Positions 51,092 through 51,775 of a DNA stretch of 64,000 bases are shown piece by piece. The DNA is from Escherichia coli. Lineage in GTDB: Bacteria; Pseudomonadota; Gammaproteobacteria; Enterobacterales; Enterobacteriaceae. The stretch is from NCBI RefSeq assembly GCF_003334305.1, contig NZ_QOWS01000009.1; one strand, 5' to 3'. The position numbers were made by a program, and so were the translations under genes. The first letter of the stretch is position 1, and each line of letters begins with the position of its first letter. The notes under the pieces are model-generated. The model ran no database searches, was not told the DNA's origin, and was given only the letters and a program-made list of their open reading frames with translations.

Positions 51092-51775
51092 TTATTTTTT
51101 GCTTCTTTTCTGCCGATTTTCAGCAGAGGGAAGATTGTCGAACTGAATATTTTCCATGTTGATGGCTAACTTCAGATATCCCAGGTTATTGGGCGATACA
51201 CCCTTCAGGGTCAAATTAATGTCTTGCCATTGACCTGGTAATAATTTCAATGTGGATTTCATTGATGTGTTGAAAAGTAATTGTTGCCACCGGGCAAACT
51301 CTTTGGCATCGACAGGTTTTTCACCACCCCATGTCGCATTAAAACCAATGTTTGAGATAGGTGTACTTAATAAGTTGACCAGTGAGATATGAATAACACT
51401 ACCATTCTCTGTGGCGTCAATGGATAACACTCGACCCGCTAAAGCCACCGAACCGTTGTTCAGGATGAAATACTTCGTTTTTGCTGGGTTAAACTCGGTA
51501 AAAATAAAAGTATTTTGTTGGTCTTTAACGGATTTAATTACGTGAGTTAAAGTCTTTGTACTGTTTATTATGCCAGTTTGTTGTTTTTGAATAGTTTCGA
51601 GTTGACTCTTTAGCTGTGCTTGTTGTTTTTCAAGTAGATCAATTTTATTGTTATGTTCTTCTTGTTGTTTCAATAAACTACTTTCTGGCTTGCCTTCTTC
51701 AATGTAGTCACATCCCGTTAATGCGCAGAGAACTGAAACAGTGACAGCACTGAAAAAAATCTTCTTCAAGTTCAT
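51092..51775 (-). CDS. SadB-like inner-membrane lipoprotein upstream of adhesin gene
   Basis: 227-aa ORF; signal peptide with lipobox LTGC and Asp at +2 (MNLKKIFFSAVTVSVLCALTGCD); coiled-coil segment; 43 nt upstream of the adhesin gene on the same strand. Confidence 0.7.
   Translation of the reverse strand: MNLKKIFFSAVTVSVLCALTGCDYIEEGKPESSLLKQQEEHNNKIDLLEKQQAQLKSQLETIQKQQTGIINSTKTLTHVIKSVKDQQNTFIFTEFNPAKTKYFILNNGSVALAGRVLSIDATENGSVIHISLVNLLSTPISNIGFNATWGGEKPVDAKEFARWQQLLFNTSMKSTLKLLPGQWQDINLTLKGVSPNNLGYLKLAINMENIQFDNLPSAENRQKRSKK

Follow-up and report, generated by a model that had tools for sequence, protein, structure and literature searches.

SadB, a predicted inner-membrane lipoprotein encoded directly upstream of the trimeric autotransporter adhesin gene ehaG in Escherichia coli

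The open reading frame at 51092..51775 (minus strand) of the 64,000-nucleotide stretch of E. coli DNA analyzed here as a whole (contig NZ_QOWS01000009.1, in the following the window) is the E. coli ortholog of Salmonella SadB, and all SadB-defining features that can be tested on sequence were found in it. Its product is very probably a dedicated, non-essential helper of the neighboring trimeric autotransporter adhesin (TAA) EhaG, which would act as an inner-membrane trimer and be co-transcribed with the adhesin. The sadB–ehaG system as such is already known, having been published in 2014 and annotated in RefSeq, and represents a standard E. coli operon. The two genes and the parts of the lipoprotein were assigned as follows.

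51092..51775, minus strand: sadB ortholog, predicted SadB/YajI-family inner-membrane lipoprotein gene (227-aa open reading frame, match to 4c47, RefSeq name)
51707..51775, minus strand: signal peptide (residues 1–21) and lipobox LTGC with Cys22, followed by Asp23 at position +2 (sequence reading)
51515..51685, minus strand: predicted coiled-coil region, residues ~31–87 (model helix, heptad register, SadB alignment)
51137..51499, minus strand: predicted C-terminal beta-sandwich (MATH-like) domain, residues ~93–213 (model strands, Foldseek, conservation)
46198..51048, minus strand: ehaG, trimeric autotransporter adhesin of 1616 aa with extended signal peptide and YadA anchor (open reading frame, NCBIfam, RefSeq twin)

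The identity of the lipoprotein was established by a phmmer search against all PDB sequences, in which the sole strong match was 4c47_A, deposited as 'inner membrane lipoprotein', the crystal structure of Salmonella enterica SadB (E = 7e-68). Residues 30–227 of the window protein aligned with residues 10–207 of 4c47 without a single gap, and 103 of the 198 positions were identical (52%). The preliminary description had likened the inner-membrane lipoprotein and its trimeric autotransporter to the SadB–SadA pair and had named an alignment to Salmonella SadB as the check; the extensive similarity found, together with the published sadBA arrangement, supports this likeness. Domain models were far less informative: in the Pfam scan, DUF3251 remained sub-threshold (i-E 0.011) beside coiled-coil noise, and in the NCBIfam scan, PRK11530 (NF008575, 'hypothetical protein'), which we take to be the YajI model, scored 21 bits against a cut-off of 158. 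Pfam and NCBIfam alone would thus have left the label 'hypothetical', and it was the PDB sequence search that decided the identity.

A monomer model was computed with AlphaFold from a 12-sequence alignment and reached moderate confidence (mean pLDDT 68), with a single long helix at residues 31–87 and beta strands at residues 102–206. When this model was used as Foldseek query against the PDB, chains B, A and C of 4c47 ranked first (E ~1e-20; best 1.6e-20), followed by the E. coli paralog YajI (2jwy, E = 1.3e-4) and, lower, by SPOP MATH domains, a ranking that repeats the structural relationships given in the original SadB paper. Within the helix, 12 of 18 a/d positions were hydrophobic in the best heptad frame versus 8–9 in the others, and the best frame was that of SadB. 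The same stretch aligned ungapped with the region of 4c47 that Grin et al. called a nine-heptad coiled coil, which, with the model helix and the heptad register, bears out the coiled coil proposed in the preliminary description. Salmonella SadB crystallized as a homotrimer, with the nine-heptad coiled coil and three beta-sandwich domains (PMC3953254), and because the alignment to this trimeric structure is ungapped, the window protein would presumably form a homotrimer as well.

Compared with Salmonella SadB (STM3690; PDB 4c47; sadBA operon, Grin et al. 2014, J Biol Chem, PMC3953254), the mature part, ungapped and 52% identical overall, was less similar in the coiled coil (~38% identity, residues 30–92) than in the beta domain (63%, residues 93–210). 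Common to both proteins are the lipidation site at Cys22, Asp at +2 and the succession of coiled coil and beta-sandwich, and both genes lie immediately upstream of orthologous TAA genes in the mtl–lld interval, at a distance of 44 bp in Salmonella (PMC3953254) versus 43 nt here. The partner adhesins differ in length, with 1616 aa for EhaG and 1461 aa for SadA.

The reading frame (start ATG, stop TAA, 227 codons in the ORF list of the window) encodes an N-terminus that reads MNLKKIFFSAVTVSVLCALTGC followed by DY, with MNLKKIFFSAVTVSVLCALTG preceding C22. Its n-region is basic, with two Lys residues, and is followed by a hydrophobic core and the lipobox L-T-G-C; the codons of Cys22 and of Asp23 at +2 are located at 51710–51712 and 51707–51709, respectively. 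Earlier, the gene had been described as encoding a 227-aa lipoprotein with LTGC and Asp at +2, with the strand left unspecified; these features are read directly at 51092..51775, on the minus strand. The motif G21-C22-D23 was present in 11/11 aligned sequences that included the N-terminus. Among the 94 near-full-length relatives in which a lipobox-like pattern was detected, 'DY' occupied +2/+3 in 90 and D occupied +2 in 92. A length of 224–227 aa is kept across several genera, and since both this length and G21-C22-D23 are conserved across genera, sadB is a real gene and no chance reading frame. Its product is a predicted lipoprotein with a textbook signal peptide and lipidation at Cys22. For Salmonella SadB, an inner-membrane location was predicted from Asp at +2 and later confirmed by fractionation, the protein being recovered in the inner-membrane fraction and found to be triacylated by mass spectrometry (PMC3953254). 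Based on Asp23 at +2 and on this ortholog, the window SadB would likewise reside in the inner membrane.

The product of ehaG was matched by TAA models (NCBIfam), and the domains of its relatives comprise ESPR, YadA_head, YadA_stalk and YadA_anchor. The gene order in the window is lldD-lldR-lldP-ehaG-sadB-yibL-yibT-mtlR-mtlD-mtlA, with all genes on the minus strand except yibT. E. coli strain A7 was 100% identical to the window over 7 kb, and its RefSeq labels for the two genes are 'DUF3251 domain-containing protein' and 'trimeric autotransporter adhesin EhaG'; for the lipoprotein, the former is the older RefSeq name and 'SadB/YajI family lipoprotein' the newer one. The position of the lipoprotein gene 43 nt upstream of the adhesin and on the same strand, as originally described, was confirmed exactly, with the gap at 51049–51091 and both genes on the minus strand. 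In 9/9 inspected loci with an intact adhesin, from 4 taxa, the lipoprotein gene precedes the adhesin gene at a distance of 43–44 nt, reads in the same direction and lies in the yibL–lldP interval. A search for natural cases of an intact adhesin without sadB yielded the coverage-table candidates H43 and H55, both of which carry sadB at the usual spacing. A further candidate, H25, was rejected, as its IS1 deletion truncates the adhesin too.

Two observations were made in the flanking regions. The open reading frame of mtlD (53774–55105, minus strand) comprises 443 aa when started at an upstream in-frame ATG, versus 382 aa (1149 nt) for RefSeq mtlD; the N-terminal extension spans the mtlA–mtlD spacer and is an ORF-calling artifact. 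Downstream of yibH, from window position ~59400–59900 onward (17380–19270 of the A7 record), an Rhs toxin-immunity remnant region is found, for which the A7 annotation lists a frameshifted Imm57-family immunity gene, RHS core-domain fragments and yibG.

Signals bearing on an operon were collected by consensus scans and by alignment of related loci.

51049..51091, minus strand: 43-nt sadB–ehaG spacer, in which the scan found no terminator-like site (consensus scan, alignment of 7 loci)
51970..51999, minus strand: promoter-like TTGACA-18-TAGAAT, candidate sadB–ehaG promoter with a predicted leader of ~190 nt (consensus scan, alignment)
51776..52318, minus strand: AT-rich regulatory region between yibL and sadB, 33% G+C (composition, alignment)
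46074..46103, minus strand: terminator-like hairpin with a 13-bp stem and T-run, ~95 nt after the ehaG stop (consensus scan)

The spacer is strongly conserved in length (43/44 nt) and in sequence at 7 loci from 4 taxa, and its conservation across genera exceeds that of the region encoding the coiled coil of sadB. Its consensus across genera reads GCGCTTATA[A/T]CAAGGAATAG[C/A]GAGCATCA[T/A]TAATG. A motif AAGGA lies within the spacer 16 nt from the adhesin ATG, which is unusually distant for a Shine-Dalgarno sequence. Judged from the spacing, sadB and ehaG would be transcribed together.

The promoter-like site, ~195 nt upstream of sadB, matches the consensus at 11 of 12 positions and is thus near-consensus for sigma-70. 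The consensus scan found 11 promoter-like sites in the region with 11.0 expected, and as chance would give just as many, the scan by itself is no proof of a promoter. The yibL–sadB interval was therefore considered as an alignment of 6 loci, namely the EhaG-type, UpaG-type and N-01 loci of E. coli and those of Pseudocitrobacter, a Salmonella-labelled assembly and E. fergusonii. Here, the promoter-like site was the best-conserved intergenic block, with TTTGACA invariant and the −10 element invariant or nearly so, while the alignment otherwise showed a mean identity of 61%. Owing to this conservation across genera amid the 61% background, the TTGACA-18-TAGAAT block is likely to be the operon promoter, with a predicted leader of ~190 nt. 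A second conserved block, AT(T/A)C(T/C)GAAAA, was noticed at 52174–52183 (minus strand), ~180 nt upstream of the promoter-like site, and is nearly invariant in the 6 loci from 4 taxa.

With 37% G+C in sadB and 33% in the upstream region, both are far below the window mean of 49%. This AT richness fits the H-NS repression of UpaG that is reported in PMC5012682. An Rfam search of positions 45800–53200 assigned neither the sadB leader nor the spacer to an RNA family. The sole Rfam match in that interval was a sub-threshold one to the enterobacterial sRNA STnc380 (RF02055) at 46003–46112 on the plus strand (34.4 bits versus a gathering threshold of 60, E = 7e-4). It is located in the ehaG–lldP intergenic region, overlaps the hairpin at 46074–46103 and belongs to a stretch that is kept in K-12.

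The distribution of sadB was determined by sensitive blastn, which recovered its coding sequence in 4150 of 5426 complete E. coli genomes (~76%), always on the chromosome and with a median of one copy per genome (two places at most). SadB homologs were found in E. coli/Shigella, E. fergusonii, E. albertii, E. marmotae, E. ruysiae, Pseudocitrobacter and Salmonella-labelled assemblies. Nucleotide identity to the window gene was bimodal: 2268 genomes carry a copy at ≥95%, one at 90–95%, none at 80–90% and 1881 at 60–80%, and the diverged class includes the upaG-linked allele. At this single locus, E. coli thus has at least two classes of sadB allele, which are deeply diverged (~70–76% nucleotide identity). 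The UpaG-linked SadB (e.g. WP_001049694.1, next to upaG) occupies the same locus and has the same length of 227 aa, a GCDYIE lipobox region and a 43-nt spacer; its identity to the window protein is 67% at the amino acid level (coiled coil 51%, beta domain 77%) and ~70–76% at the nucleotide level.

Divergence between SadB proteins is centered on the coiled coil, the length of which differs among orthologs by −3 residues in E. fergusonii and Pseudocitrobacter and by −14 residues (two heptads) in E. albertii. Conservation is highest in the beta domain (74–82% identity between genera), in which the aligned orthologs showed zero indels. In strain N-01, the coiled coil of SadB is 99% identical to that of the UpaG-linked allele, whereas its beta domain is closer to E. 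fergusonii (91%) than to the UpaG-linked allele (83%), a pattern that suggests a mosaic allele formed by recombination within sadB. The head of the N-01 adhesin is just 41% identical to its UpaG-linked counterpart despite the 99% identity of the coiled coils. A comparison of SadB regions with adhesin regions across 8 loci showed no simple tracking, and covariation of the coiled coil with the adhesin head was no longer assumed. Conserved on the adhesin side are the extended signal peptide and the C-terminal 400 residues, as are the beta domain of SadB and the 43-nt spacer. From this contrast between a diverging coiled coil and these conserved parts, one might speculate, with considerable doubt, that the beta domain recognizes a conserved membrane- or signal-peptide-proximal part of the adhesin, the coiled coil serving as an adjustable spacer that has adapted together with the envelope or with the adhesin variant.

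Regarding function, co-expression of Salmonella SadB increased both the SadA surface signal and the protease resistance of SadA (PMC3953254), and an independent study obtained ~3-fold higher SadA display with SadB (PMC11054257). Cross-linking, pull-down and phage display gave no demonstrated physical interaction between SadB and SadA, and because these assays were inconclusive, the mechanism of SadB is still hypothetical even in Salmonella (PMC3953254). In a 2026 survey, 106 SadB homologs were found next to TAAs, all of them in Enterobacterales (bioRxiv 10.64898/2026.01.22.700529). For the window, where orthology, domain architecture, lipobox with Asp at +2, linkage and synteny are read from the sequences themselves, the effect on EhaG would be analogous. 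SadB would be exported via Sec and then lipidated at Cys22, with Asp23 retaining it in the inner membrane, and would trimerize via its N-terminal coiled coil, so that the three beta-sandwich (MATH-like) domains face the periplasm. Transcription of sadB together with ehaG would run from the promoter ~195 nt upstream to the hairpin terminator after ehaG. SadB may then raise the amount of EhaG trimers at the surface and promote their correct folding or register, possibly by holding or synchronizing three unfolded adhesin chains near Sec until the repetitive passenger assembles in register. UpaG and EhaG are displayed functionally from plasmids in K-12 hosts, which are devoid of sadB, and such a helper would consequently be non-essential.

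An operon that is intact in its reading frames yet silent or decaying in this strain, and hence without present function, would fit the AT-rich upstream region, which is consistent with H-NS silencing as PMC5012682 reports it for UpaG, and also the repeated loss of the locus in E. coli; the native expression conditions of sadBA are not established (PMC3953254). This state of affairs is nevertheless improbable, since both reading frames are full length and 100% identical in another isolate, and since the conservation of beta domain, lipobox, spacer and promoter block across genera argues for purifying selection.

A role unrelated to the adhesin was also considered, with the protein acting generally in the periplasm or envelope as a member of the YajI (DUF3251) type and lying next to ehaG by coincidence. 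E. coli YajI (2jwy, DUF3251) is a lipoprotein with a C-terminal beta-sandwich of the same topology and was the second-best structural match, but it shares only ~14–16% identity with the window SadB, and its gene is unlinked to any autotransporter, being located between yajC-secDF and nrdR-ribDE-nusB (PMC3953254). An assignment as YajI ortholog was rejected based on the DUF3251 i-E of 0.011, the PRK11530 score of 21 bits and the gene position between yibL and ehaG; the window SadB is rather a related paralog. The distant kinship to this unlinked protein and the lack of demonstrated direct SadB–SadA binding (PMC3953254) speak for a general role, which is nonetheless highly improbable: sadB was lost together with the adhesin both in K-12-type genomes and in an IS1 deletion, the spacing of 43–44 nt recurred in every intact locus inspected, across genera, SadA display was improved by co-expression in two independent studies (PMC3953254, PMC11054257), and the PRK11530 score is far under the cut-off of 158.

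A helper of the TpgA type was rejected as well, since Pfam found no BamE-like or OmpA domain in the window SadB and Foldseek indicated a SadB-like fold. Apart from SadB, TpgA from Acinetobacter, which assists the TAA AtaA, is the sole TAA-specific helper described as being encoded beside its adhesin, and no helper families beyond SadB and TpgA were found in the 2026 survey (bioRxiv 10.64898/2026.01.22.700529). TpgA combines BamE-like and OmpA peptidoglycan-binding domains and contacts the adhesin barrel from the outer-membrane side; it differs from SadB in fold, location and mechanism.

The origin of the locus was assessed by comparison with K-12-type genomes, in which, as the preliminary description had stated, lldP and yibL are neighbors; the distance between them is 371 nt. 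The further proposal of that description, an insertion of both genes relative to K-12, is not supported, given the synteny across genera, the ~76% carriage in E. coli and the hairpin retained in K-12. The order mtlADR-yibT-yibL-sadB-TAA-lldPRD was recovered, along with the 43/44-nt gap, in E. fergusonii, Pseudocitrobacter corydidari and Salmonella-labelled assemblies. K-12 is collinear with the window from the lldP side up to 46147 and resumes at the yibL stop (52318); the 6170 bp in between are swapped for ~51 nt that complete a REP-like sequence, and the hairpin trailing ehaG is retained beside the deletion junction. The K-12 junction itself lies in or next to the REP-like sequence, a full GCCGGATGCGGCGTGAAC...CGGCCTA element (K-12 locus segment ~720–800), and at 46117–46147 the window has a different short palindrome, TTGCCTGATGCGCGTAACGCATCAGGCAA, in its place. 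In E. coli 102651 (locus 1–3150), IS1A has taken the place of sadB and of the 5′ part of the adhesin gene, which is annotated as a pseudogene 'missing N-terminus'; this IS1 loss is independent of the K-12-type deletion. Grin et al. 2014 reported that Escherichia, Shigella and Salmonella share a conserved sadBA operon located between mtl and lld, and that K-12 has lost it (PMC3953254). The most parsimonious reading of these sequence comparisons, given the synteny in other genera, the majority carriage in E. coli and the retained hairpin, and in agreement with Grin et al., is that sadB–ehaG is ancestral at this site and was repeatedly lost, with K-12 as a deletion. A horizontally acquired insertion (genomic islet) into a K-12-like ancestral state, for which the lldP–yibL adjacency in K-12 and the low G+C of sadB (37%) and its upstream region (33%) against the 49% window mean, typical of foreign H-NS-silenced DNA, could be cited, is hardly credible in view of the synteny and gap shared with the three groups of assemblies named above (and with Salmonella and Shigella per PMC3953254), the always chromosomal and nearly always single copy of the E. 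coli carriers (4150 of 5426 complete genomes), the 3′ ehaG hairpin kept in K-12 where ~51 nt replace 6170 bp, and at least one independent loss via IS1. Neither an integrase or tRNA gene nor direct repeats flanking the locus were seen. Any acquisition would be older than the divergence of the carrier genera.

To the published sadB–ehaG system, the present analysis makes minor additions, namely the conserved promoter block and spacer, the ehaG terminator hairpin, the bimodal alleles diverging in the coiled coil, the mosaic alleles and the K-12 junction. For annotation hygiene, it is relevant that older records keep the name 'DUF3251 domain-containing protein'. Only two dedicated helpers of TAA secretion have been described, SadB among them, and work on EhaG and UpaG in K-12 hosts proceeds without this natural helper. 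If the beta domain does recognize a conserved part of the adhesin, this would provide a testable handle on the mechanism of SadB.
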